Sequence record: OK254197.1
Origin: Escherichia phage PNJ1902
Direction: 5' to 3' (one strand)
DNA length: 64,000 nucleotides
Numbering within the stretch: position 1 is the stretch's first letter; each line of letters starts with the position of its first letter. Below the pieces are notes generated by a model, which saw nothing but the letters and a program-made list of their open reading frames with translations, ran no database searches and had not been told where the DNA came from. Positions 4,943-60,942 of this stretch are shown here, in pieces. The position numbers and the translations under genes were made by a program.

Positions 4943-6319
4943 ATGACTATTGATATTAATAAGCTGAAAGAAGAACTTGGTCTGGGTGATCTGGCTAAAT
5001 CTCTGGAAGGTCTGACCGCTGCTCAGAAAGCTGCTGAAGCTGAACGTATGCGTAAAGAGCAGGAAGAAAAAGAACTGGCTCGTATGAATGATCTGGTTTC
5101 TAAAGCAGTTGGCGAAGATCGTCAGAAACTGGAACAAGCTCTGGAACTGGTTAAGTCCCTTGATGAAAAATCTAAAAAGAGTGCAGAACTGTTTGCACAG
5201 ACTGTAGAAAAACAGCAGGAAACTATTGTTGGTCTTCAGGACGAAATCAAATCTCTGCTAGCAGCTCGTGAAGGACGTTCCTTCGTTGGTGATAGTGTAG
5301 CTAAAGCACTGTATGGTACTCAAGAAAACTTTGAAGACGAAGTGGAGAAACTGGTTCTTCTGTCCTACGTGATGGAAAAAGGTGTATTTGATACTGAACA
5401 TGGCCAGAGACACCTGAAAGCTGTAAACCAGTCCTCTTCAGTAGAAGTTTCTAGTGAAAGCTATGAAACTATTTTCTCTCAGCGTATTATTCGTGATCTG
5501 CAGAAAGAACTGGTAGTTGGTGCACTGTTTGAAGAATTGCCGATGTCCAGCAAAATTCTTACTATGCTGGTTGAACCAGATGCTGGTAAAGCTACTTGGG
5601 TAGATGCTGCTACTTACGGTACTGATGCTACTACTGGTGATGAAGTTAAAGGCGCTCTTAAAGAGATCAGCTTCAAAACTTACAAACTGGCTGCTAAATC
5701 CTTTATCACTGATGAAACTGAAGAAGATGCAATCTTCTCTCTGCTGCCTCTGCTGCGTAAACGTCTGATTGAAGCACATGCTGTTTCTATCGAAGAAGCG
5801 TTTATGACTGGTGATGGTTCCGGTAAGCCGAAAGGCCTGTTGACTCTTGCTAGCGAAGATGGTGCTAAAGTTACTACTGAAGCTAAAGCTGATGGTTCTG
5901 TTCTGGTAACTGCTAAAACTATCTCTAAACTGCGTCGTAAACTGGGCCGTCATGGTCTGAAACTGAGCAAACTGGTACTGATTGTATCTATGGATGCTTA
6001 TTACGATCTGCTGGAAGATGAAGAATGGCAGGATGTTGCACAGGTTGGTAACGATGCTGTTAAACTGCAAGGTCAGGTTGGTCGTATTTATGGTCTGCCG
6101 GTTGTAGTTTCTGAATACTTCCCGGCTAAAGCAGTAGATAAAGAGTTCGCAGTTATTGTTTATAAAGATAACTTCGTAATGCCGCGTCAGCGTGCTGTTA
6201 CTGTTGAACGTGAGCGCCAAGCTGGTAAACAGCGTGACGCGTACTACGTCACTCAGCGTGTTAACCTGCAACGTTACTTTGCAAATGGCGTTGTATCCGG
6301 TGCTTACGCTGCATCTTAA
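4943..6319 (+). CDS. Major capsid protein precursor (pb8-like, HK97 fold with N-terminal scaffolding domain)
   Basis: 458 aa; N-terminal coiled-coil-like delta domain MTIDINKLKEELGLGDLAKSLEGL... recognised as T5 major head protein; codon usage is host-optimal (CTG/CGT/GGT rich). Confidence 0.95.
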   Translation: MTIDINKLKEELGLGDLAKSLEGLTAAQKAAEAERMRKEQEEKELARMNDLVSKAVGEDRQKLEQALELVKSLDEKSKKSAELFAQTVEKQQETIVGLQDEIKSLLAAREGRSFVGDSVAKALYGTQENFEDEVEKLVLLSYVMEKGVFDTEHGQRHLKAVNQSSSVEVSSESYETIFSQRIIRDLQKELVVGALFEELPMSSKILTMLVEPDAGKATWVDAATYGTDATTGDEVKGALKEISFKTYKLAAKSFITDETEEDAIFSLLPLLRKRLIEAHAVSIEEAFMTGDGSGKPKGLLTLASEDGAKVTTEAKADGSVLVTAKTISKLRRKLGRHGLKLSKLVLIVSMDAYYDLLEDEEWQDVAQVGNDAVKLQGQVGRIYGLPVVVSEYFPAKAVDKEFAVIVYKDNFVMPRQRAVTVERERQAGKQRDAYYVTQRVNLQRYFANGVVSGAYAAS

Positions 6320-8173: not shown

Positions 8174-9568
8174 ATGTCTTTACAACTATTACGTAATACT
8201 CGAATCTTCGTGTCTACGGTTAAGACTGGTCATGATAAGACCAACACGCAAGAGATTCTAGTTCAGGATGATATTTCTTGGGGTCAGGACAGTAACTCAA
8301 CAGATATTACTGTTAATGAAGCTGGTCCGCGTCCAACTCGTGGTTCTAAACGTTTTAATGACTCTTTAAACGCGGCTGAGTGGAGTTTCTCTACTTATAT
8401 CCTGCCATACAAAGATAAAACTACTAATAAACAGATTGTTCCTGACTATATGTTATGGCACGCTCTTTCTAGTGGTAAAGCTCTTAACCTGGAAGGTGAT
8501 ACAGGGGCACATAATAACGAAACCAATTTTATGGTTAACTTTAAAGATAACGCGTACCACGAGCTGGCAATGCTGCATATCTACATCCTGACTGACAAAG
8601 CATGGAGTTATATCGATTCCTGTCAGATTAATCAGGCAGAAGTTAACGTTGATATTGAGGATATTGGTCGTGTAACTTGGTCTGGTAATGGTAACCAGCT
8701 TATTCCTCTGGATGCGCAACCATTTGATCCAGATGAGGTAGGTATTGATGATGAAACTTATATGACTATTCAGAGTTCTTATATCAAGAACAAATTGACT
8801 ATCCTGAAAATTAAGGATATGGATTCTGATAAGGCATATGATATCCCTATTACTGGTGGTACTTTCACCATTAATAATAACATCACGTATCTAACCCCGA
8901 ATATTATGTCCCGTGTAAATATTCCGATCGGTTCATTTACTGGCGCATTTGAACTAACTGGTTCATTAACTGCTTATCTGAATGATAAATCTCTTGGTTC
9001 TATGGAGCTGTACAAAGATCTTATCAAAACCCTGAAGGTAGTTAACCGCTTCGAAATTGCTCTAGTACTTGGTGGTGAATACGATGAAGAACGTCCTGCG
9101 GCTATTCTGGTAGCTAAACAAGCACACGTTAATATTCCTACTATTGAAACTGATGATGTACTTGGTACTTCAGTAGAGTTTAAAGCTATTCCATCTGATC
9201 TGGATGCTGGTGATGAAGGTTACTTAGGCTTCTCTAGTAAATATACCAAAACAACTATTAATAACTTGATTGTTAATGGTGATGGTGCTACTAATGCTGT
9301 AACCGCAATTACTGTTAAATCTGCTGGTGATGCTACTACAGTAAACAACTCGGCTACTCTTCAAATGAGTGTTGAAGTTACTCCTTCTTCCGCAAAGAAT
9401 AAGGAAGTTACTTGGGCTATCACTGCCGGTGATGCAGCTACTATCAGTGCAACCGGACTGTTAACAGCAGATGCTATTAAAACTGGTGCAGTTACTGTAG
9501 AAGCTACTGCTAAAGATGGTTCTGGAGTTAAAGGTACTAAACAGATTACTGTAACAGCAGGTGGCTAA
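8174..9568 (+). CDS. Tail tube protein (pb6-like) with C-terminal Big_2-type Ig-like domain
   Basis: 464 aa; C-terminal ITVKSAGDATTVNNSATLQMSVEVTP...VTVEATAKDGSGVKGTKQITV Ig-like domain; host-optimal codon usage; size equals T5 pb6. Confidence 0.85.
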   Translation: MSLQLLRNTRIFVSTVKTGHDKTNTQEILVQDDISWGQDSNSTDITVNEAGPRPTRGSKRFNDSLNAAEWSFSTYILPYKDKTTNKQIVPDYMLWHALSSGKALNLEGDTGAHNNETNFMVNFKDNAYHELAMLHIYILTDKAWSYIDSCQINQAEVNVDIEDIGRVTWSGNGNQLIPLDAQPFDPDEVGIDDETYMTIQSSYIKNKLTILKIKDMDSDKAYDIPITGGTFTINNNITYLTPNIMSRVNIPIGSFTGAFELTGSLTAYLNDKSLGSMELYKDLIKTLKVVNRFEIALVLGGEYDEERPAAILVAKQAHVNIPTIETDDVLGTSVEFKAIPSDLDAGDEGYLGFSSKYTKTTINNLIVNGDGATNAVTAITVKSAGDATTVNNSATLQMSVEVTPSSAKNKEVTWAITAGDAATISATGLLTADAIKTGAVTVEATAKDGSGVKGTKQITVTAGG

Positions 9569-9572
9569 TTAA

Positions 9573-10472
9573 ATGTACTACTCTCTAATGAGAGAGTCAA
9601 AAGTTATAGTTGAGTATGATGGTAGGGCATTTCATTTTGATGCCCTATCAAACTATGATATACAGACTTCCTACGAGGAATTCAAGACTCTTCGTAGGAC
9701 TGTTCATCGTAGAACTAACTATGCAGACTCTATTATAAATGCTCAAACTCCCTCTTCTATCTCTCTAGCAGTAAATTTCAGCAATACTCTTACGGAGGCT
9801 AACTTCTTTGAATGGTTAGGTTTTGATAGAAAAGGTAATACTTTCTTACTCCCACTATATAGTAATAATATTGAACCTATTATGTTCAATATCTATATAG
9901 TAAACAAAGATAATAACTGTGTATATTTTGAAAACTGCTATGTATCTACAGTAGATTTTTCTTTAGATAAGAATATACCAATTCTTAATGTTGGTATTGA
10001 ATCGGGGAAATTTTCCGAAGTATCTACATATAGAGAAGCAGCTTCTATTATACAGGGTGAAGTAATGTCTTATAGCCCAGTAGTAGCTTCTACTAATGGT
10101 AGCATCTTACCCGGTCTTATCTCTGCCTCTTTATCTTTCCAGCAGCAGTGCTCTTGGAGAGAAGATAAGAGTGTTTTTGATATAAATAAAATTTATAATA
10201 ATAAAAGAGCTTATGTAACCGAAATGAATGCTTCGGCAACCATTTCTCTATACTACTTAAAACGTTTTGCAGGAGATATGGTTTATAATATAGAACCGGA
10301 GATAGATGTACCTTTAACGATAAGAAATAATAATATTTCTATAGATTTTCCTTCAGCACGTATTACAAAACGCCTAGAGTTCTCAGATGTGTATAGAGTT
10401 GAGTGGGATATTATACCTACTACTTCTTCAGACCCAGTGAGAATAGATTTCTTTGGAGAAATTAAAAAATGA
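9573..10472 (+). CDS. Putative tail protein (p140-like, tube-associated/collar)
   Basis: 299 aa ORF after tail tube; AT-rich codon usage; synteny with T5. Confidence 0.45.
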   Translation: MYYSLMRESKVIVEYDGRAFHFDALSNYDIQTSYEEFKTLRRTVHRRTNYADSIINAQTPSSISLAVNFSNTLTEANFFEWLGFDRKGNTFLLPLYSNNIEPIMFNIYIVNKDNNCVYFENCYVSTVDFSLDKNIPILNVGIESGKFSEVSTYREAASIIQGEVMSYSPVVASTNGSILPGLISASLSFQQQCSWREDKSVFDINKIYNNKRAYVTEMNASATISLYYLKRFAGDMVYNIEPEIDVPLTIRNNNISIDFPSARITKRLEFSDVYRVEWDIIPTTSSDPVRIDFFGEIKK

Positions 10473-10873
10473 TTAATTTAAAAGATATTACTCTTGATAC
10501 TCGTACTATTACTCTTTCCTACCCAGGTATGCCGAACTTTAAACTAGAACTTAACTATATGTCTCGTGCTACCTCTAAACGTGTTATTTCTTCTGCTAAA
10601 CGCGATGAATGGGTTAACGGTACTTTGGTTCAGGTACAGGATGATGATAAGTTTATTGAAGCTTTCGTCGATGCTGCGATTAAAGGTTGGACTGGTTTGA
10701 CTGTAGGTGACGTTGAAAAACTGATGCTGATTGAAACAGATGCTGATCCTGAGACTGAAGTTCCTTTTAGTCGCGATAATGCTGTAATGCTTATGCAGAA
10801 CTCTGCTGCGTTTGATTCTTGGATCAACCAGACAGTGTTCCACTTAGACACTTTTCGTAGCCCAAAAGCGTAA
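10469..10873 (+). CDS. Putative tail assembly chaperone
   Basis: 134 aa acidic ORF upstream of tape measure gene; ATGA overlap with previous gene. Confidence 0.35.
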   Translation: MINLKDITLDTRTITLSYPGMPNFKLELNYMSRATSKRVISSAKRDEWVNGTLVQVQDDDKFIEAFVDAAIKGWTGLTVGDVEKLMLIETDADPETEVPFSRDNAVMLMQNSAAFDSWINQTVFHLDTFRSPKA

Positions 10874-42237: not shown

Positions 42238-42268
42238 ATTTAAACTCCTCTCTCAAATTTATGAATCT

Positions 42269-42297
42269 ATTATACAGAAAAATTTTCCTGAAAGCAA
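42269..42297 (-). promoter_or_regulatory. Strong early promoter, near-identical to the classical T5 PN25 promoter
   Basis: Minus strand reads AAAATTTATTTGCTTTCAGGAAAATTTTTCTGTATAATAGATTCATAAATTTGAGAGAGGAG: A-rich UP region, TTGCTT, 17 bp, TATAAT. Confidence 0.8.
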
Positions 42298-42548: not shown

Positions 42549-45312
42549 CTAGCTCTGCCATTGCTTCATCATGCATATGTTTCTCCTCATCAGTCATAAA
42601 CTTATATGGGATTGGCATACACTCGATTTTACAATAGGTTCTGTACCAGTCTACAATATTCTCCGTGTTCATATCCTTACCAATACCCATCATACCAAGA
42701 TACATTCTCGCATATTTTGGGTTAGCACTCTGACCTGTTTTAAGGAAGAAATCTTTCTTCTTACCTTTCAGAGCTTCTATGAATGGTTTGATAGTGACAT
42801 TTGAACACTTCTTAATATCTTCCCAGAACATCTCGTGCATTTTATGGAAGAATGCCGCTCGATCATTCGGTTTATCTTTGATATATTGTTCAACGTGCTC
42901 AACTGTTACATCTTTAATAGACTCAAGATGATAGTAGCGAACAAGAAGTAGTTTAGCCTCATACGCATCTGCATGGCGTGGAGCACAATAATCAGGAGTT
43001 GAATACAAAATGGCTTTGATTCGCTCTTCCGTATACTCTTTTCCTGCACCTTCGATAGTTCCCCAGCTTTCACTGAAAATATCAATAGTTGCACCCTGAT
43101 CAAGCAAGTAATAACGTAAGGTACTAGTATAGTTTCTAGATTCCAGCTCTCTACGACGTGCGTATAATTGCTGTGCTAACTCCAGCCAACCTTCATCAAT
43201 GTTATATTGTTCAGAACCTGCGGAGAATCCACTCGTAGATTTATCAATAAAATAATAAATGTTCTGAGCGCCACGGTCGCGCCTGATTGCTTGGAAACGC
43301 ATGTTTGGCGCTTGGTTACTGGTTCTAGTAATAACGAATACGTTATCAAAGTAGTTGAAGTCAACGCCACTCGTTACGGATGGACTACATAATAAGCAAT
43401 CAATTTGTTGATCAATTAGCTCATTAGTTGTGTAATCCAGAATACGTCGAATATCTACATCAGACGTAGAATTTGAGTGGATTTCCTTAACTAGGGCACC
43501 TGTATTACGACGTAATGCCATACCCTTCTCATTCAGTTCATCCGGCCCACAGTCAGATACTAGGATAGATTTCTCACCCATCTCTAGAGAAGTCTGAAGT
43601 GCAACCCAAATACTGGATTCATCCGGGAACTCATAAGCATGAGCTTTTGACAGCATCTTACGGTGATGGTTGTAAAATGCAACCGGTTTATCAAAATCAA
43701 TTAGAGAACCGTAGGCTTCAATCGTCTCAGCACTAATATCACCATCAGATAAGATTACAGTTTTAGCTGTCATGAGGATGTCACGTAGAACTTGAATACA
43801 TTCGCGACGTTGTTTAACAACGGGGGCGAATAATAGATCATTCATTACAGCGTCACATTCATCAATAAAAATGGTGTCTATTTGACCAATAAAACTCTTG
43901 AACTTATGCAAAGAGTGAATAGTTGTGGACATACGGTCAATAGCGCCACGCTTAAAATTAAGCATATCTACAGACTTATCATATTGTCCTGCACTAAATT
44001 TCTTAGCATTTGAAGATACCAGCGCTCTAGTATTTGTAACTGCTAAAAAGTTGCCAGGAAGAACACCTGCGTCCAGCCATTTAGTTACTGCCGTAGTTTT
44101 ACCAGTACCAAGACTTGCCTTAACAAATGTTATATGGCCTTTTGGGGGCACAATGTTAATCTTCAGGTATGGAACTTCTGGTGGAGAATCCACTTCTAAT
44201 TTCTTGAGTGGAACACCTTTCAGATTTAATGGAATCTCACGTTTAGAATTATTAACAAACGCTTTGAGAGCCTGCTTGCGACCGTTATTAAAGTAATCTT
44301 GAATATTACGACTATTATCTTTAGTTGCAATATATTCAGATAAAGCGGGTTTAATCTCACGTTCTAGCCATGCGAAATCAACACCATCCTCTAATGCTCT
44401 ATGGTATAGTTTGGGGATAATACGCAAGTACACCCCATCCTCAGCTTCTTCCAATTCGCTGATGGTTTCTTCTACTTTATCAGACGCGATCTTTTTGCCT
44501 TTAATTTGGTCAAGTAAGGAATAGAATTCCTCTTTAAACTCTCCTCTAGTTGTTTCATAATCAACCAGATTATTGGGCAAATTTACCTTCGAACCTTTAA
44601 CATACACCAGACGTGGCTTACTCTCCGCTTTAAACGGATCTACAATACCATCGCTAAATAAAGGGTCGGCAAAATAGTGAAGCTGGACAGATGAATAATA
44701 AGCTAAGTCGGCAATGTCAAAACCGAATTTTTGCTTACTACTATCGTTGATGGATGTAAATAAGAACTTTAGCTGACCCTGAGTTACCTTGACGTTAGAT
44801 TCTAGCATTAAGTGCATTCGGATACCTGGTTTTAGGCCAGCCGAAGATGATGCATGAGCAATAAACCCTGCATCAAGAGGAAACATGTCCTCACTAATAC
44901 TATTCAACATCTTAATAATGTGGCGGGCCATGCCTACAAGATTAAACTTGTCGTACCCACCGGTATCTAGGATACCATCCACGTCCATAGCAATAATATT
45001 GCTGGGGTTGGATACATTAAAGTTACCTTTCTTACGCCGCACGTTATTTTTAGGTGCAAGACATCGACCTCGTACCGCAACGATATGAGGATCAGACGTT
45101 AAACGTCTCATAAGTGGTAACATTTCGGCAAGGCTTTGCGGGTCATGCTCTTCTATTACATCAAATTTGAAGGGCATAGAGGCTGGTTTACCTTCTGGAT
45201 GCTCTTTCGAGAATCGCTTGGCAAAGGTATAATCCTCCGCTTTGATTTCTCGCCAAATACCTGTTGCTAAATCACGAGAAAATCCGGCGTGACCTTGAAG
45301 AATAGAAAACAC
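42523..45312 (-). CDS. Large P-loop NTPase, putative replication-associated helicase / origin-binding-type protein; GTG start
   Basis: 929 aa; Walker A ASLGTGKTT and Walker B IFIDECD; RBS AGGAG 7 nt upstream of GTG. Confidence 0.75.
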   Translation of the reverse strand: MFSILQGHAGFSRDLATGIWREIKAEDYTFAKRFSKEHPEGKPASMPFKFDVIEEHDPQSLAEMLPLMRRLTSDPHIVAVRGRCLAPKNNVRRKKGNFNVSNPSNIIAMDVDGILDTGGYDKFNLVGMARHIIKMLNSISEDMFPLDAGFIAHASSSAGLKPGIRMHLMLESNVKVTQGQLKFLFTSINDSSKQKFGFDIADLAYYSSVQLHYFADPLFSDGIVDPFKAESKPRLVYVKGSKVNLPNNLVDYETTRGEFKEEFYSLLDQIKGKKIASDKVEETISELEEAEDGVYLRIIPKLYHRALEDGVDFAWLEREIKPALSEYIATKDNSRNIQDYFNNGRKQALKAFVNNSKREIPLNLKGVPLKKLEVDSPPEVPYLKINIVPPKGHITFVKASLGTGKTTAVTKWLDAGVLPGNFLAVTNTRALVSSNAKKFSAGQYDKSVDMLNFKRGAIDRMSTTIHSLHKFKSFIGQIDTIFIDECDAVMNDLLFAPVVKQRRECIQVLRDILMTAKTVILSDGDISAETIEAYGSLIDFDKPVAFYNHHRKMLSKAHAYEFPDESSIWVALQTSLEMGEKSILVSDCGPDELNEKGMALRRNTGALVKEIHSNSTSDVDIRRILDYTTNELIDQQIDCLLCSPSVTSGVDFNYFDNVFVITRTSNQAPNMRFQAIRRDRGAQNIYYFIDKSTSGFSAGSEQYNIDEGWLELAQQLYARRRELESRNYTSTLRYYLLDQGATIDIFSESWGTIEGAGKEYTEERIKAILYSTPDYCAPRHADAYEAKLLLVRYYHLESIKDVTVEHVEQYIKDKPNDRAAFFHKMHEMFWEDIKKCSNVTIKPFIEALKGKKKDFFLKTGQSANPKYARMYLGMMGIGKDMNTENIVDWYRTYCKIECMPIPYKFMTDEEKHMHDEAMAELGARNDSEE

Positions 45313-45810
45313 AACAATACTCCTGTGTTGGTTAATCGAAAATCTTTTCTTTAGGACTATTCAGAAAGAATAGAACAACTATTACTACTGTTTACGTAAA
45401 CATCAATTATCATCAAGCAATATGAATAAGTTATCATATCTCAGTGCTGTGCTCTCTTCGCTCATATACAGAATAGAACCTAGGTCATTGGCCGCTAAGC
45501 CGATTCTATTTGTCCTCACTATCCTATTGGTAGGTGACTACTGTACGTGCCGCCATTCGCTGCTCTTTTCGTTCGCACCCCCATATAAAGCTCTGCCTAT
45601 ATAACGAGCTAAATATGCACGGTTTGGATTTACCTTTCCGAATTCAGGGTACACAGATCACTTAATTGAAGATTAACTAATGCAATATAAACACTAGTAA
45701 TAGTTAAAACAACCCTTAATGGGGCAGCCTAACTGTTCCGTATCGCGGATTGTAAACAAGAAAAATTAGCAAAATCAATTTTTACTAATGTCTCTCAATT
45801 CAATATAAAT

Positions 45811-45839
45811 ATTATATCAAGATTTTGGGCATCCGGCAA
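45811..45839 (-). promoter_or_regulatory. Early promoter firing into an ORF-free leader of about 480 nt
   Basis: TTGCCG - 17 bp - TATAAT followed by ATTTATATTGAATTGAGAGA. Confidence 0.5.
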
Positions 45840-45933
45840 GTAAAATTTTCCGGATGGTGCTATCAGTGTCTTTGAGCATAGAGAAAACCGAGCCAAAATG
45901 ACTCGGTAATCAGAGTTCAGCTAATAAAAATCA

Positions 45934-46323
45934 TTAGTCATTTAATCCCGGAACATAGATCCCAACACGGCTTAACTGTTCTTTAGCTTCTGCGAGAATA
46001 TCTGGAGTGTACTCCCAAATATCATCTTCCACCTGTAAAAGATGGGGCGAACAACCGTCACCAGGCACACGACATATGGCCAAACCACGTGGATGGAATA
46101 TAGAGAAGTTTAGGGCAACAATTAAACCCATAGCGGACAATTCATTCCAGTCCATCTCCCACTCCCTGGCATATCCAGATAGGAAAACGCCAATGCATGG
46201 ATCATCTATTTGCTGCTCAGGAAAAGTGAAGGAGGCTTGTCTTACCCCCAACCAACGTTGTAGCAGCTTCTCCGCACGTTTCACCAAACTAGGGTCAATC
46301 TGACGCCAATATACTTGTTCCAT
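45934..46323 (-). CDS. Hypothetical protein (tandem paralog 2)
   Basis: 129 aa; shares PCIG..., EL.xMGL(I/V)(V/F)ALN(F/Y) and C-terminal (I/Y)(Y/M)(V/I)PGL motifs with upstream neighbour. Confidence 0.55.
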   Translation of the reverse strand: MEQVYWRQIDPSLVKRAEKLLQRWLGVRQASFTFPEQQIDDPCIGVFLSGYAREWEMDWNELSAMGLIVALNFSIFHPRGLAICRVPGDGCSPHLLQVEDDIWEYTPDILAEAKEQLSRVGIYVPGLND

Positions 46324-46332
46324 TCTGCCTCC

Positions 46333-46761
46333 TTAAGCAGTTAAACCTGGGATCATATACCCGAAACGGCGAAGTTTCTGAATCCCCTCATTTACTTCTT
46401 CCGGTGAGTAAGACCAACCATAACGTTCATTAACCTGAAAACCAGGAGATTCACTAGTTTTATAGTTAACAACGAGGCGATGCTTAACAGGCATAAACAG
46501 CTTATAATTTAACGCAAAAACTAAGCCCATTTCGTCTAACTCTTTCCAGCCGACAATCTCTTCAAGACCCTCCTCTACCTGAACAATTAAACCAATACAG
46601 GGAGCCTCATCAATATCATCTTTAAAAGCAAAGGAGATTTCGTTATTCTCACACCATATTTTCAAGGAATTAATAGCCTCATTATACAGGCTAGAGGGGA
46701 GAGTACGCCAAAAGTTAACTAAAATTGGGTTAACTTCTTTAGAGAAGACATTATTGAACAT
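46333..46761 (-). CDS. Hypothetical protein (tandem paralog 1)
   Basis: 142 aa; paralogous motifs as above. Confidence 0.55.
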   Translation of the reverse strand: MFNNVFSKEVNPILVNFWRTLPSSLYNEAINSLKIWCENNEISFAFKDDIDEAPCIGLIVQVEEGLEEIVGWKELDEMGLVFALNYKLFMPVKHRLVVNYKTSESPGFQVNERYGWSYSPEEVNEGIQKLRRFGYMIPGLTA

Positions 46762-46763
46762 AT

Positions 46764-47270
46764 TTACACCTTAAATTGTTGTAAGGATTTACACATTTCA
46801 AGATCTGGGCTAAATTCTAGCATATAGCTAACAGCTTTTAAATCTTGAAGATTTATCCCAGTCCTACCGTTGACTATAACCGTTGGATACTGATACATCA
46901 TAGCACCCGCATCATCAAGCACACACCAATGTTTGAGCTTATGATTTTCAACAAAGCGAAGAACAGAATTACCCCTAGATAATCCACCCCCAGTAAAATC
47001 CGTTGTACCAAGAAAACGATCGATAAGACCTAATCTGGTCATAATCTGAACGTTCTCCATTTCATTTCTGACAGAAAACCAAGATGATACTCCAACAATC
47101 ATTATCGGAGAAGGACGAATAAAGTCCTGAAAAGCCTTGAGAAGCGGTTTGAAAACCCAATCACTTCCAAAGAAAATCTTTTCATCATCAGGTGCATGAT
47201 GGTGGGAGATGCTCGAATTGAGCACCCCATCAATATCTAGAAAAATAATTGGAGTATTACTTATTTCCAT
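46764..47270 (-). CDS. HAD-superfamily phosphatase-like protein
   Basis: 168 aa; motif I IFLDIDGVLN (DxDGx), later VLDDAG acidic motif. Confidence 0.6.
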   Translation of the reverse strand: MEISNTPIIFLDIDGVLNSSISHHHAPDDEKIFFGSDWVFKPLLKAFQDFIRPSPIMIVGVSSWFSVRNEMENVQIMTRLGLIDRFLGTTDFTGGGLSRGNSVLRFVENHKLKHWCVLDDAGAMMYQYPTVIVNGRTGINLQDLKAVSYMLEFSPDLEMCKSLQQFKV

Positions 47271-47439
47271 TTTTGTTCCTTTCTAAGAACGTATCATACT
47301 CAACCGTATCAACATATATAACACCATAGTCATCGGATTTATAGTCCATTTCCCACAGCTCACAGCGATAGCACCAACTACCATCCGCCCACACAAATAT
47401 ATCATCGGGATGTGTATACACAGGTTTAACTATGGACAT
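47257..47439 (-). CDS. Small hypothetical protein
   Basis: About 60 aa from internal ATG (MSIVKPVY...); overlaps neighbours in operon. Confidence 0.35.
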   Translation of the reverse strand: MSIVKPVYTHPDDIFVWADGSWCYRCELWEMDYKSDDYGVIYVDTVEYDTFLERNKNGNK

Positions 47440-48262
47440 ATCTGTTTCCCTTGCTTCTCGACACATAAGGTCTACCCTCTAAATGAGCTTCTACACGAGC
47501 AATAAAATTAGGGTCACTAAAAGCATCTACCGCACCTTTACTCCAGTAGGGGATACCACGTTCTTCTAGCTGGTACATCTCACTACGAGTCATACCTTGA
47601 TAGCCCGGTTCCGCCGCTAGGGCACTATCATAGTAGTTAACAACCATAAGTTTCGCAGCAGTCAAATTAAGAACAGGAAATAATTCCCAGTAGAAGTTAA
47701 TTACTTGGTTAGAGCAACCAACCACAATGATCATATCTTGACTGGTAATACCATCAAAAACATTATACATTTCTGCGTATGCAGGAGCATGCTCCCCAAA
47801 GAAGATTACATTAGGTTTAACCCATTTATAATCATCTGGGTCAATAGAATTGTATCCTACATCAATAATCCGTTTATTGCTACTATTGTAGCTATCAGCT
47901 ACAACAACCTCTTTTAAATATCCGTGAATGTGCAGAATGTCACTATGTGGAACGCCAGCACGCTCAATAAGGTCATCAACGTTGGTAGTCAAGTTTACTA
48001 CTTGACCTGGATATTGTTTATACCATTCACCAATACGCAAATGCGCAAGATTGGGTTCAACAGTTTTTAGCTCTTCACGACGCTTGTTGTAAAACATATG
48101 GGTTTTATGGTAAAAATTACCACGAAAGGCATGAATATTACATACTTCTTCTAGGTCATAATCATCCCACAGTGCTTTACCACTAGCAGTATCAGTACGA
48201 AAAGCTCGTACACCACTTTCAACACTCAAACCTGCACCGCTAATAATAATTAATCTACGCAT
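47426..48262 (-). CDS. Sir2-family (sirtuin-like) NAD-dependent enzyme, apparently lacking the zinc ribbon
   Basis: 278 aa; GAGLSVESGVRAFR (cf. sirtuin GAGISxxSGIPxFR), NLTTNVDDLIERAG (cf. TQNIDxLHxxAG), catalytic HG in ILHIHGYL, PNVIFFGE, VVGCSNQV; no CxxC pairs. Confidence 0.75.
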   Translation of the reverse strand: MRRLIIISGAGLSVESGVRAFRTDTASGKALWDDYDLEEVCNIHAFRGNFYHKTHMFYNKRREELKTVEPNLAHLRIGEWYKQYPGQVVNLTTNVDDLIERAGVPHSDILHIHGYLKEVVVADSYNSSNKRIIDVGYNSIDPDDYKWVKPNVIFFGEHAPAYAEMYNVFDGITSQDMIIVVGCSNQVINFYWELFPVLNLTAAKLMVVNYYDSALAAEPGYQGMTRSEMYQLEERGIPYWSKGAVDAFSDPNFIARVEAHLEGRPYVSRSKGNRYVHS

Positions 48263-48458
48263 TTTTCACCTGTTCTCTGAAGTTTTGCCCAATACTGTCT
48301 AATAGCTCAGCTAATTCTTTATTGCCTTTCTCCATGAAGGTATTGGCAATAACTTCTAGCATAGTAGCGCAGGATTCAACACCATCCTTATAGCCAGTCT
48401 CCCAGTGCTGCATTAATGCGTTTTCCAAAGCGGAGTTTAAACCCTTATCTGGCAGCAT
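48255..48458 (-). CDS. Small hypothetical protein
   Basis: ORF in Sir2 operon; start uncertain (48476 or 48458). Confidence 0.4.
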   Translation of the reverse strand: MLPDKGLNSALENALMQHWETGYKDGVESCATMLEVIANTFMEKGNKELAELLDSIGQNFREQVKNA

Positions 48459-48648
48459 CAGCTTCGAGAATGCCATAAAGTTTCTCCTCTAGTTCCATAA
48501 CACGATTTTCATAAGAGGCACGCAACTTTTCAATTGCCAGCGCACGCACTGTAACCTCATTAGAATTAATAGCTAACTGGGCCAGGTCTTCTGTTTCCAT
48601 ACGTCCGTTGTAAATTAAGCGATATTTAAGATGTTTTACGTTTTTCAT
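48445..48648 (-). CDS. Small hypothetical protein
   Basis: 67 aa ORF in Sir2 operon. Confidence 0.4.
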   Translation of the reverse strand: MKNVKHLKYRLIYNGRMETEDLAQLAINSNEVTVRALAIEKLRASYENRVMELEEKLYGILEADAAR

Positions 48649-48657
48649 TCTTGTTCC

Positions 48658-48939
48658 TTAGTTCTGTACTGTAAACTCATTCTTATCACAGTGAGCATAA
48701 TAATACCCATACATACGATAAATTTTCACAGCCTTAGTAGACCCCTTCGATTCTTCATAATCAATCCAGAGCCACTTGTCTTTACCTACATAATGTACCC
48801 GAAACTTCTTAACTTTCTTATCATTCCATGTTGCAACAACACGACGATAATCAAATCCTCCCAACCAATCTAGAGCCTTACGTTCTTCGCTAGGCTCTCC
48901 AAAATGGGAGACATCTACTTTAGGAAGCAACTCACTCAT
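48658..48939 (-). CDS. Hypothetical protein (first gene of Sir2 operon)
   Basis: 93 aa; RBS GAGGAG downstream of PN25-like promoter. Confidence 0.5.
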   Translation of the reverse strand: MSELLPKVDVSHFGEPSEERKALDWLGGFDYRRVVATWNDKKVKKFRVHYVGKDKWLWIDYEESKGSTKAVKIYRMYGYYYAHCDKNEFTVQN

Positions 48940-48967
48940 AGCTTTCTCCTCTCAAATTTATAAATCT

Positions 48968-48996
48968 ATTATATATAAATTTTTGGCTGAAAGCAA
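48968..48996 (-). promoter_or_regulatory. Strong early promoter (PN25-like) driving the Sir2/HAD operon
   Basis: TTATTTGCTTTCAGCCAAAAATTTATATAATAGATTTATAAATTTGAGAGGAG on minus strand: TTGCTT - 17 - TATAAT. Confidence 0.7.
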
Positions 48997-49002
48997 ATAA
49001 AA

Positions 49003-49032
49003 TAAAAGCCAGGTCGACTAGCAACCCGGCTG
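49003..49032 (-). terminator. Putative terminator after nrdD (minus strand)
   Basis: GCCGGG-loop-CCTGGC hairpin followed by TTTTATTTT on minus strand. Confidence 0.45.
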
Positions 49033-49038
49033 ATTAGC

Positions 49039-50913
49039 TTATTTAGCTCGAATATCCTGATGTTTCACCCTGCCCATCACCTCGTGCTGTTTGCCGGGGT
49101 TAAATGGACGAGCACCCGGATTTCCAAGATACCCACAAACTCGACGAGTTACTTCAAGAGTTTCGGGGTCATGATTACCACAGATAGGGCACTTAAATCC
49201 ATCTTCGGATGCTATTGTTTCACCTAAGAATCCACATTTACCACAAGAATCCACTGGGGTATTAATACCGAAATAATGAACCTTACTAGCAGCATAATTA
49301 ATAACCCATTCCAGTGCATCTGGGAATCGTTTCATATCCGGTAGTTCTACATAGGAAATGCACCCACCAGAAGCAATAGGAGTAAAGTTAGATTCATAAT
49401 CAAATTTCACATTGGGAGCAACTTTACGTTCTACATCAAGGTGGTGCGAGTTAGTGTAGTATCCTTTGGACAGAATATCTTCATGCTCTGGGAAATATTC
49501 ACGGTCTAGACGACAAAAACGGTCACATAGGGATTCTGATGGTGTAGCATACAGGCTATAACCTAATTTAGTTTCTTCCTTCTTCTGATCGACTCTATCC
49601 CGCATGTATTGCAATACACGCTGAACAAACTTGATGCAGGTCTCGGACATTGTGTCTACCTCTTTGCCAAACATGAACTGTAGCATTTCATGGCAACCAA
49701 TATACCCTAGAGATACAGAAGCACGGTTATAGAAATGATCGAATACATATTCATCAGGCCCCAAGCGTAACCCAAAGGCTCCTGACATATAGAGGATAGG
49801 TGCAGCTTTAGCTTGAATGTATTTTAAGCGATCAACTCTCCATTCCAACGCTTTTAATGCTGTATCCACACGTAGCTCAAGCAAATCAAAGAATAGATCA
49901 ATATTTCCTTCAGCTTCGATAGCAATTCTAGGCAAGTTTACAGAAACAACACCTAAGTTATTACGACCGGCAGTTTCACCATCTTCTGTAGCAGCTAGGA
50001 ATGAACGGCAGCCCATAGAAACTTTGTAGTCTCCAGTAACCTCTACAACCTTGTCATAGCTGATATAATCTGGATACATACGTTCAGCAGTACATTTCAT
50101 AGCTAACTTCTTGATGTCATAATTAACATCTCCTGGTTTCATATTTACTCCATCACGAAGTACAAATACCAGTTTCGGGAAGATAGCTGTACGTTTATTG
50201 ATACCTAAACCATCCATGCGTACTTTCAGTATTGCTTTCTGTACTAGACGTGCTTCCCAAGAAGTTCCTAGACCAAAACCAAAGGTAATAAATGGACTCT
50301 GACCATTAGAGTTGAACATGGTATTGATTTCATATTCTAAACCCTGACAAGCGTCATAGACTTCTTTTTCAGTCATCTCCGTAGCCATTACGGATGCTTT
50401 GGCTTCATCCTTAGTCCAACGTTTTGCAAACGCATGATTTTTATCATAGGATTTACGTACATAAGGGGCTAATACTTCATCAAGGCGATCTACAGAAGTA
50501 CCACCATACTGATGGGAGCTAACCTGAGTGATAATCTGAGCAGTAATAGCCGCCGCAGTAGTGATAGAGTTTGGAGTGCTAATTTCAGCATTACCAACCT
50601 TCATACCATTCTTCAACATATCTTCCAGAGCTACCAGACAACAGTTAGTCATACCTAATGCAGCATAATCAGCATCATGGAAATGAATATCCCCAATCAT
50701 ATGAGCATTTCGAATCTGAATTGGCATTTCTTCTAGAATCAGATACTTACTCAATTCACCTGCAAGCATATCCCTTTGTGTAGGGAAACGTTCTGAGGGT
50801 TTATTAGCATTATTAAACAGCAGCTCTTCATCTGCTGACCCTTCGATAATCTCTTTGCAGTTTCTAATTAACGCCTGCATTTCTTTATACTTTAATTCTT
50901 CATTGCGATTCAT
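49039..50913 (-). CDS. nrdD: Anaerobic ribonucleoside-triphosphate reductase (class III, NrdD)
   Basis: 624 aa; C-terminal zinc ribbon CGKCGF...CPICG and glycyl-radical motif RVCGYLG; RBS AAGGAG. Confidence 0.9.
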   Translation of the reverse strand: MNRNEELKYKEMQALIRNCKEIIEGSADEELLFNNANKPSERFPTQRDMLAGELSKYLILEEMPIQIRNAHMIGDIHFHDADYAALGMTNCCLVALEDMLKNGMKVGNAEISTPNSITTAAAITAQIITQVSSHQYGGTSVDRLDEVLAPYVRKSYDKNHAFAKRWTKDEAKASVMATEMTEKEVYDACQGLEYEINTMFNSNGQSPFITFGFGLGTSWEARLVQKAILKVRMDGLGINKRTAIFPKLVFVLRDGVNMKPGDVNYDIKKLAMKCTAERMYPDYISYDKVVEVTGDYKVSMGCRSFLAATEDGETAGRNNLGVVSVNLPRIAIEAEGNIDLFFDLLELRVDTALKALEWRVDRLKYIQAKAAPILYMSGAFGLRLGPDEYVFDHFYNRASVSLGYIGCHEMLQFMFGKEVDTMSETCIKFVQRVLQYMRDRVDQKKEETKLGYSLYATPSESLCDRFCRLDREYFPEHEDILSKGYYTNSHHLDVERKVAPNVKFDYESNFTPIASGGCISYVELPDMKRFPDALEWVINYAASKVHYFGINTPVDSCGKCGFLGETIASEDGFKCPICGNHDPETLEVTRRVCGYLGNPGARPFNPGKQHEVMGRVKHQDIRAK

Positions 50914-60873: not shown

Positions 60874-60902
60874 TTGCTTCCGGCTCCAAAATTCTGTATA
60901 AT
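60874..60902 (+). promoter_or_regulatory. Early promoter
   Basis: TTGCTT - 17 bp - TATAAT then ATATTCATAAATTTGAGA. Confidence 0.65.
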
Positions 60903-60942
60903 ATATTCATAAATTTGAGAAAACAATAAAAGGAAAACAAAT

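Follow-up and report, generated by a model that had tools for sequence, protein, structure and literature searches.

The sirtuin-HAD operon of T5-like phages: a CobB-like sirtuin without zinc-ribbon cysteines, and a possible role in NAD+-dependent RNA-end processing

A sirtuin and a 'Swiss-army-knife' HAD protein were described as neighbours in the T5-like Escherichia phage SP15 by Iyer, Burroughs, Anantharaman and Aravind (2022; PMC9503650, section 3.7.3), who predict that they act in RNA repair, the sirtuin clade removing RNA 2'-phosphates in the manner of KptA. The same gene pair, assigned to the same Pfam family and likewise in a T5-like phage, is found in Escherichia phage PNJ1902 (record OK254197.1), of which a stretch of 64,000 nucleotides, hereafter the window, was analysed. 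It belongs to a minus-strand operon of eight open reading frames (ORFs), g1 to g8, extending from 48939 to 45934, preceded by a PN25-type promoter and closed by an intrinsic terminator. The resemblance to SP15 includes a DUF7415 protein 90% identical to g7. Section 3.7.3 of the SP15 account makes no mention of the DUF7415 pair, of g5, or of the restriction of the HAD to the Markadamsvirinae as against the Demerecviridae-wide occurrence of Sir2 and DUF7415. For the sirtuin and the HAD, a function in RNA-end processing dependent on nicotinamide adenine dinucleotide (NAD+) is tentatively favoured here, at less than even confidence.

Annotation of these genes dates back to the T5 genome, and the lack of zinc cysteines and the pairing of Sir2 with a HAD have both been published. 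Skliros et al. (2016; PMC5107563) described related Sir2 proteins of Vibrio phages in which salt bridges stand in for the zinc ligands, and gave the T5 protein as a relative. An earlier note on this DNA, made from the sequence alone, had called the module uncharacterised. This remains correct as regards experiments, since none on a T5.102-type sirtuin or on the operon was found in the literature and searches for T5.102, T5.105, T5.106, T5.107 and DUF7415 returned no papers, but not as regards description, the block being known as T5.100-T5.107 and covered by PMC9503650 and PMC5107563.

The operon is the T5.100-T5.107 early accessory block of T5-type phages. Gene order, strand and location between nrdD and the replication-origin-binding gene are those of T5, and the identity to T5 is 95% for Sir2, 98% for the HAD and 91% and 92% for the two DUF7415 proteins. 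The two blocks differ only in small ORFs: tblastn finds neither g1 nor g3 in T5, an unrelated gene, T5.100, occupying the first position there, and T5.103 is missing from the window. The 3.4-kb operon region is 98.3% identical to that of Salmonella phage HMD-P4, and 185 phage records match it at 95% DNA identity or more, about 190 at more than 94%. The tight array of eight genes that the earlier note had placed at 45934-48996 was recovered at that span, all ORFs on the minus strand, together with its sirtuin, HAD phosphatase and pair of paralogs. From promoter to terminator, the elements are:

48963..48996, minus strand: predicted strong operon promoter, PN25-type sigma-70 early promoter, 0 mismatches to the PN25 core pattern; -35 TTGCTT (48996-48991), 17-nt spacer, -10 TATAAT (48973-48968), discriminator AGATT
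48658..48939, minus strand: g1, 93 residues, annotated without a function, phrog_7953 (PHROG E 4e-65), Shine-Dalgarno sequence GAGGAG
48445..48648, minus strand: g2, 67 residues, T5.101 orthologue (89% identity), phrog_5236
48255..48476, minus strand: g3, 73 residues, phrog_5827, 8-nt overlap with the Sir2 start
47426..48262, minus strand: g4, sirtuin of the CobB/SIRT5-like clade, 278 residues, T5.102 orthologue, PF02146
47257..47466, minus strand: g5, 69 residues from the first ATG, phrog_5116, G(S/T)WCYR motif
46764..47270, minus strand: g6, HAD-superfamily phosphatase, HAD_SAK_2 (PF18143), 168 residues, T5.105 orthologue
46333..46761, minus strand: g7, two tandem DUF7415 repeats, 142 residues, T5.106 orthologue, PF24187 E 4e-36
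45934..46323, minus strand: g8, two tandem DUF7415 repeats, 129 residues, T5.107 orthologue, PF24187 E 2e-31
45907-45887, minus strand: intrinsic operon terminator, 9-bp stem followed by a T run

The g4 protein matches SIR2 (PF02146; E 8e-25, 88 bits against a cut-off of 24) as its sole Pfam family at E <= 0.1, and it contains the sirtuin signatures GAGLSVESGVRAFR (residues 9-22), NVDDLIERAG (94-103) and HG (113-114), all quoted in the earlier note. The closest solved sequence is that of E. coli CobB (1s5p, phmmer E 2e-17). An AlphaFold (AF2) model derived from 33 homologues, with a predicted local distance difference test (pLDDT) of 87, retrieves the same CobB structure first in Foldseek (E 5e-18, template-modelling (TM) score 0.85 normalised to the target), then Sir2Af1 and SIRT5; profile and predicted structure thus both place the protein inside the Sir2 fold. 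The alignment of the phage sirtuin family shows the GAGxS residues (G9, A10, G11, S13), F21, R22, Y58, R61, N94, D96, H113 and G114 to be invariant. Conservation of the full catalytic set suggests that g4 is probably active and consumes NAD+.

The Cys4 set of the sirtuin zinc ribbon is absent. The only two cysteines of g4, C41 and C183, lie outside the zinc-module segment (115-148), which contains no Cys in g4 or in its 33 close homologues, and the predicted model keeps three strands in or flanking this module (E114-122, E131-134, E147-152). An exhaustive search for the sirtuin clade returned 2,967 relatives at E <= 0.001, and 141 of the best 150 cluster representatives, 32-56% identical to the query, were analysed. 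H113, G114, N94, T92 and G182 are invariant in this sample, D96 is kept in 135, Y58 in 134 and R61 in 106 of the 141 sequences. As to the zinc module, 84 of the 141 possess at least four Cys and 39 none, with the same catalytic residues; those that keep them mostly have a CxxC...CxxC arrangement around the same (I/V)GY...KPNVV scaffold. Because of this distribution, zinc loss is to be read from the sequences as a subgroup trait inside a CobB-like sirtuin clade, not as a mark of kinship with SIR2 NADases. This mixed status of the zinc module may be new to print. Nothing was learned from the domain fusions found among clade sirtuins (tandem Sir2, WG repeats, RHS repeats).

The g6 protein matches PF18143, a family named 'HAD domain in Swiss Army Knife RNA repair proteins', with an E-value of 2e-20 (74 bits against a cut-off of 27.5). 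It displays all four HAD motifs: LDIDGVLN (motif I, with the DIDGVL of the earlier note at residues 12-17), SSW (II), GGxSRG (III) and VLDD (IV). D12, D14, S62/S63, R99 and D119/D120 are shared without exception by distant homologues from T4-like phages of Proteus and Aeromonas; sequence searching brought up no homologue that has been solved or characterised. It is predicted to be a minimal HAD phosphatase of an RNA-repair-associated family, the RNA-end activity of HAD_SAK_2 being itself a prediction. The annotation of this gene is confused: many RefSeq records of T5-like phages label it 'Sir2 (NAD-dependent deacetylase)', and hence list two Sir2 genes, a reading rejected here because the supposed second gene is the HAD. 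The label probably stems from PHROG 18062, named Sir2, which is matched by the HAD C-terminus as well as by a Sir2 fragment; this origin of the mis-annotation may also be new to print.

In other phages, orthologous sirtuins have RNA ligase, kinase, cREC, 2H and Nudix genes as neighbours. Their identity to g4 is 52-60% in rV5, a Mydo-like Klebsiella phage and Schickermooser, and 43% over three-quarters of the protein in the jumbo phage GAP32. Gene orders are as follows:

rV5: RNA_lig_T4_1 - cREC - Sir2, co-directional and overlapping or abutting, with an AAA_33 kinase and a Metallophos phosphoesterase adjoining
Mydo-like Klebsiella phage: Metallophos ... RNA ligase - cREC - AAA_33 kinase - small ORF - Sir2 - DNA ligase
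GAP32: 2H phosphoesterase - Zn-binding protein - Sir2 - Nudt16-like Nudix+cREC fusion

These three neighbourhoods independently confirm those described by Iyer et al. 2022 (PMC9503650). To these may be added Streptomyces phage Annadreamy, in which a distant Sir2 lies amid tRNA genes, ~3.7 kb downstream of a gene annotated as a polynucleotide kinase. In phage DT57C, Sir2 and the HAD have been deleted together and the DUF7415 pair kept. RNA-end processing is preferred over protein deacylation on account of this recurrent, lineage-independent adjacency to RNA-end enzymes and of the joint loss in DT57C.

Following Iyer et al. 2022, the sirtuin would transfer ADP-ribose from NAD+ onto an anionic group at a broken or processed RNA end. 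The likeliest target would be a 2'-phosphate, as for Tpt1/KptA, the products being nicotinamide and ADP-ribose-1'',2''-cyclic phosphate. The HAD would either remove a terminal 2'/3'-phosphate from the RNA or dephosphorylate the ADP-ribose-phosphate by-product, and both enzymes together would clean RNA ends cut by host ribonucleases. As T5-like phages appear to be without an Rnl1-type ligase, sealing would be left to a host enzyme. The g5 protein and the DUF7415 pair, companions of the sirtuin throughout the Demerecviridae, may be its partners or regulators. An anionic substrate is consistent with the YxxR motif, whose residues form the carboxylate-binding pair in SIRT5 and CobB. The parallel with the RNA 2'-phosphotransferase Tpt1/KptA is a functional analogy only: both would use NAD+ as the ADP-ribose donor, and the ligase, kinase and cyclic-phosphodiesterase set that partners Tpt1/KptA in fungi and plants resembles the neighbours of rV5-type sirtuins, whereas the folds differ (ART-like against Rossmann), the sequences are unrelated and the activity of the phage enzyme is a predicted one. 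A more specific proposal, rather unlikely in our estimate, is that the phage clade would be the first nucleic-acid sirtuin, an RNA 2'-phosphotransferase or RNA-end ADP-ribosylating enzyme convergent with Tpt1/KptA, partnered in T5-like phages by the HAD and DUF7415. The HAD would then serve as a minimal end-phosphatase and the DUF7415 proteins as specificity or regulatory partners. An RNA-end activity, if true, would carry sirtuin chemistry to nucleic acids and provide phages with a new counter-measure against RNA-cleaving defences.

Several points weigh against RNA-end processing. Sequence and fold, taken alone, would favour deacylation: the nearest relatives of g4 in both respects are protein deacylases, and the FGE loop and YxxR motif used for acyl-lysine binding are kept. 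The sirtuin has no homology to Tpt1, and to our knowledge no sirtuin has yet been shown to act on RNA. The functions of cREC and HAD_SAK are themselves predictions. Since heal-and-seal is already complete in the rV5-type cluster, there is no obvious need for a Tpt1-like step in it. The window contains no homologues of the ligase, kinase or cREC of rV5 or of the Mydo-like phage, and the pair that marks phage RNA heal-and-seal (Pnkp/Rnl1), an RNA ligase together with a 5'-OH polynucleotide kinase encoded by one phage, was not found. The matches to Rnl1-type ligases included only 14 Salmonella-phage records, with no T5-like phage among the matches listed, as compared to the ~270 Salmonella phages that carry the operon. 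The HAD is missing beside the sirtuin of Sugarlandvirus and of phage Slocum, and the sirtuin's neighbours are uninformative in Phapecoctavirus and Vibrio schizoT4 phages. Finally, GAP32 gp118 (positions 5270-5716 of the stretch examined, L023), two genes 5' of the sirtuin and annotated as an 'RNA ligase', matches the 2'-5' RNA ligase superfamily (E 1e-5) more weakly than the Acb1 anti-CBASS 2H phosphodiesterase family (PF23474, E 6e-16).

Protein deacylation is a close rival, which we hold possible though doubtful. The sirtuin would be a CobB-like protein lysine deacylase (deacetylase, desuccinylase or demalonylase), made early to strip host or phage proteins and reprogramme metabolism, the HAD and DUF7415 being unrelated neighbours. 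This hypothesis is in print, with acetyl-CoA synthetase activation as an example (Skliros et al., PMC5107563). The fold and the GAGxSxxSG, FR, YxxR, N-x-D, HG and FGE motifs of g4 are those of the class III deacylases CobB and SIRT5, the catalytic set is complete, and YxxR and FGE are conserved across the clade; CobB, SIRT5 and Sir2Af1 are its nearest sequences and structures, and all characterised top matches are deacylases. The Y58-N-K-R61 segment of g4 aligns with the Y-N-A-R segment of CobB 1s5p. We take Y58 and R61 to be the Tyr/Arg pair for acidic acyl groups, Y92/R95 in CobB numbering. The absence of RNA-repair neighbours in several phage groups also suits a deacylase. On the other hand, g4 is only ~24% identical to CobB/SIRT5, lacks the zinc cysteines, reads TTNVD for TQNID, bears a C-terminal extension of ~60 residues, and scores well below the NCBIfam CobB/deacylase equivalog cut-offs (best scores 100 bits against 243 and 90 against 320). 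Enterobacterial hosts, moreover, own a CobB already. The recurrence of RNA-end-processing neighbours in different phage lineages and the joint loss of Sir2 and HAD in DT57C also tell against it. If true, it would be a plain example of the host acylome being remodelled by a phage.

The earlier note had taken the missing zinc ligands as a sign of an NADase or ADP-ribosyltransferase. This inference fails because g4 is a canonical PF02146 protein without a PADLOC match, its structural matches are deacylases, its YxxR motif is kept and zinc loss is a subgroup trait. A more general form of the idea, in which such an enzyme would take part in an arms race over NAD+ and ADP-ribose and the HAD would process a nucleotide product, is considered distinctly unlikely. 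The sirtuin would act by drawing down NAD+ or diverting it, by modifying a host defence protein, or by inactivating an immune signal, whether derived from NAD+ or a cyclic nucleotide. It must indeed consume NAD+, and the operon is accessory and dispensable. The GAP32 sirtuin is found near the Acb1-like 2H protein and the Nudix-cREC fusion, with NAMPT and NMNAT/Nudix genes 2-5 kb upstream; in the Mydo-like Klebsiella phage, NAMPT and phosphoribosyl pyrophosphate (PRPP) synthetase are encoded 6-8 kb from the sirtuin. The NAD+-rebuilding NARP3 pair can occur in T5-like phages (PMC13464706). However, although g4 shares superfamily and NAD+ consumption with the defence SIR2 NADases (ThsA, DSR1/2, SIR2-HerA, SPARSA), it differs from them in being phage-encoded, in keeping deacylase-type motifs and in having no match to the PADLOC defence-SIR2 profiles at E <= 0.01. 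It is a single-domain protein, and no sensor or partner domain (SLOG, HerA, pAgo, long C-terminal domain) is fused to it or found in its operon neighbours. A defence-type SIR2 was rejected on the PADLOC and Pfam results, and so was a macrodomain-linked SirTM, as none of the eight operon proteins contains a Macro domain; there is no ARG or NADAR partner among them either. The phage phosphatase on record for ADP-ribose-1''-phosphate is a Macro domain, not a HAD, and zinc loss is no functional marker within the clade. T5 replication relies on an NAD+-dependent DNA ligase (T5.116/117), and therefore bulk NAD+ depletion would hurt the phage. For the manipulation of NAD+ pools or the counter-defence put forward in the earlier note, no evidence was found.

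The distribution of the module, established by tblastn with the eight operon proteins and from record annotations, separates a constant core from variable parts:

Tequintavirus and Epseptimavirus: Sir2 - g5-like - HAD - two DUF7415 genes
Sugarlandvirus: Sir2 - g5-like - two DUF7415 genes, without the HAD
Serratia phage Slocum: Sir2 - one DUF7415 gene, without the HAD and without nrdD

The constant core in the Demerecviridae is Sir2 plus DUF7415, usually with a g5-type protein. The HAD, confined to the Markadamsvirinae, is outside it. This Sir2-g5-DUF7415 core may be new to print. The Sir2-HAD-DUF7415 module is accessory and dispensable, as a viable phage can go without it: besides the loss in DT57C, Sir2 is split into two ORFs in phage PSa2 (L003, 5807-6001 and 6001-6815) by an apparent frameshift near residue 50-57, and the first three small ORFs of the block vary among phages. 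The 'defective sir2' of DT57C, gp102 (L004, 5980-6252), is a chimera that joins residues 171-212 of Sir2 in frame to residues 131-168 of the HAD. T5 is a tractable model phage, and DT57C provides a natural mutant without sirtuin and HAD. More widely, the sirtuin clade is represented in ~1,000 sequenced phages, including T5-like, rV5-like, phAPEC8-like, jumbo and Vibrio schizoT4 phages. A DUF7275 protein is encoded ~2-2.3 kb upstream of the sirtuin in the unrelated Vibrio phi-ST2 (L020, 3245-3859) and Escherichia phage Schickermooser (L010, 4799-5740).

The operon promoter was compared with PN25 by means of a core pattern, TTGCTTTCAG-N13-TATAATAGATT, comprising 21 specified bases with a chance expectation of 0.01 matches. 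Two sites match it without mismatch, 48963-48996(-) and 42264-42297(-), and the term 'PN25-like' used in the earlier note is therefore accurate. The second site, which precedes the D2-helicase gene and has the same core as T5 PN25, is the window's copy of the PN25 annotated in T5. Identification of the operon promoter with PN25 itself was rejected, since T5 places PN25 upstream of D2; from its sequence, the operon promoter is a paralogous copy. It combines TTGCTT, a 17-nt spacer, TATAAT, the upstream TTTATTTGCTTTCAG and a downstream AGATTxATAAATTTGAGAG, shares with PN25 this upstream element and the transcribed leader ATAAATTTGAGAG, and aligns with both T5 PN25 and the T5.100 promoter. A consensus promoter scan missed it because its -35 fits only 3 of 6 positions. 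We infer a transcription start near 48961. T5 is annotated with a promoter and a terminator at equivalent places (NC_005859, terminator after T5.107), and the sirtuin and HAD would be expressed from a promoter of a class annotated as early in T5. A third PN25-like site lies on the opposite strand at 60874-60907(+), with TTGCTTCCGG-N13-TATAATATATT and 3 mismatches to the core pattern. Within the operon, genes are separated by gaps of +9, +2 and +9 nt or overlap by 32, 8, 41 and 14 nt, and a Shine-Dalgarno sequence of the GAGG/AGGA/AAGG type precedes all eight ATGs by 6-10 nt.

The last two genes encode the paralogs noticed earlier, g7 and g8, which share 32% identity (BLASTP E 7e-18) and each harbor two tandem DUF7415 repeats. 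The domain, ~50-75 residues long, is also widespread in phages and prophages as stand-alone proteins of ~75 residues. Its motif reads IDWNxxSxLGLIxxINxEVLHPLGLAMTRNPETGxS or, in a looser form, DWxxxSxxGLxxxxNxxxxHPxxxAxxRxxxxGxS. Its His, Pro and Arg are kept in g8 (HP...R...GxS); the conserved His and Arg are lost in g7. The AF2 model of g8 is confident (pLDDT 95, predicted TM score (pTM) 0.88), finds no fold match in the PDB (best E 0.15, TM about 0.2), and retrieves DUF7415 proteins as its sole matches in BFVD. DUF7415 is thus a small domain, folded with confidence by the model and very common in phages, that has no structural relatives, and its tandem-repeat architecture and orphan fold may be new to print.

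DUF7415 genes are recurrently placed within ribonucleotide-reductase operons, an observation that may likewise be new to print. In Klebsiella phage PMBT63, one sits between nrdD and nrdG and overlaps both; in Providencia phage PSTRCR_121, one overlaps nrdD and is also located between nrdD and nrdG. On metagenomic phage contigs, others are found between nrdA and nrdB, and in the Demerecviridae they come after nrdD. The genes in reductase loci are:

L011, 4980-5213: DUF7415 gene in a reductase locus
L033, 3453-3848: DUF7415 gene in a reductase locus
L026, 2431-2844: DUF7415 gene in a reductase locus
L027, 3870-4283: DUF7415 gene in a reductase locus

Such placement may reflect a link with ribonucleotide reductase or merely a favoured insertion slot. 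In a further reading, the operon would be an extension of the cluster for nucleotide metabolism (thy, frd, nrdB, nrdA, phoH, nrdD), with DUF7415 proteins as ribonucleotide-reductase accessory factors, the HAD as a nucleotidase and the sirtuin as a regulator, an explanation we regard as very improbable. The operon stands directly behind nrdD, and DUF7415 recurs at the nrdD/nrdG and nrdA/nrdB positions just listed; against this, nrdD has its own terminator and the operon its own promoter, DUF7415 is found in many reductase-free contexts, and Slocum possesses Sir2 and DUF7415 without nrdD. Slots between reductase genes are common insertion sites of small phage ORFs, which also counts against such a role. 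The reductase-free contexts are diverse. A DUF7415 gene directly follows rnlA in Aeromonas phage Ah1 (L012, 4995-5228), another lies between the tail tube and tail chaperone genes, in the tail module of a P2-like prophage (L017, 5001-5231), and a third is fused to HTH_37 on a bacterial contig, near Dam and Asn_synthase genes (L013, 5001-5480). Prophage early regions also contain them.

In the window, nrdD (class III ribonucleotide reductase) precedes the operon and is separated from it by a terminator:

49039-50913, minus strand: nrdD
49031-49007, minus strand: nrdD intrinsic terminator, upstream of the operon

In T5, nrdD is at 8962-10686 of the stretch examined (L002), and no nrdG activase is annotated in T5 45-80 kb. 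In the T4-like phages examined, nrdG lies close behind nrdD.

Among the small proteins, g1 has no Pfam, NCBIfam or PADLOC match. The g5 gene has an alternative start at M10 (47439), giving 60 residues as in T5.104. The protein is 97% identical to T5.104 and 43-57% identical to Sugarlandvirus and Epseptimavirus proteins, and in Tequintavirus, Epseptimavirus and Sugarlandvirus a g5-type gene comes immediately after Sir2. On the upstream side of Sir2, a search across phage groups for a conserved small partner adjacent to it found none beyond the Markadamsvirinae. The g3 homologue of phage PSa2 is labelled 'nicotinamide mononucleotide transporter', which is judged a mis-annotation because the protein is hydrophilic and 64 residues long.

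An Rfam scan of 45200-49200 gave no matches. Downstream of the operon terminator, a non-coding gap of ~570 bp (45313-45886) separates it from the gene of the 929-residue replication-origin-binding protein. This gap holds an 18-nt inverted repeat, 94% complementary, whose arms (45377-45394 and 45688-45705) are 293 nt apart, and a promoter-like site with a TG-extended -10 at 45839-45811 on the minus strand.

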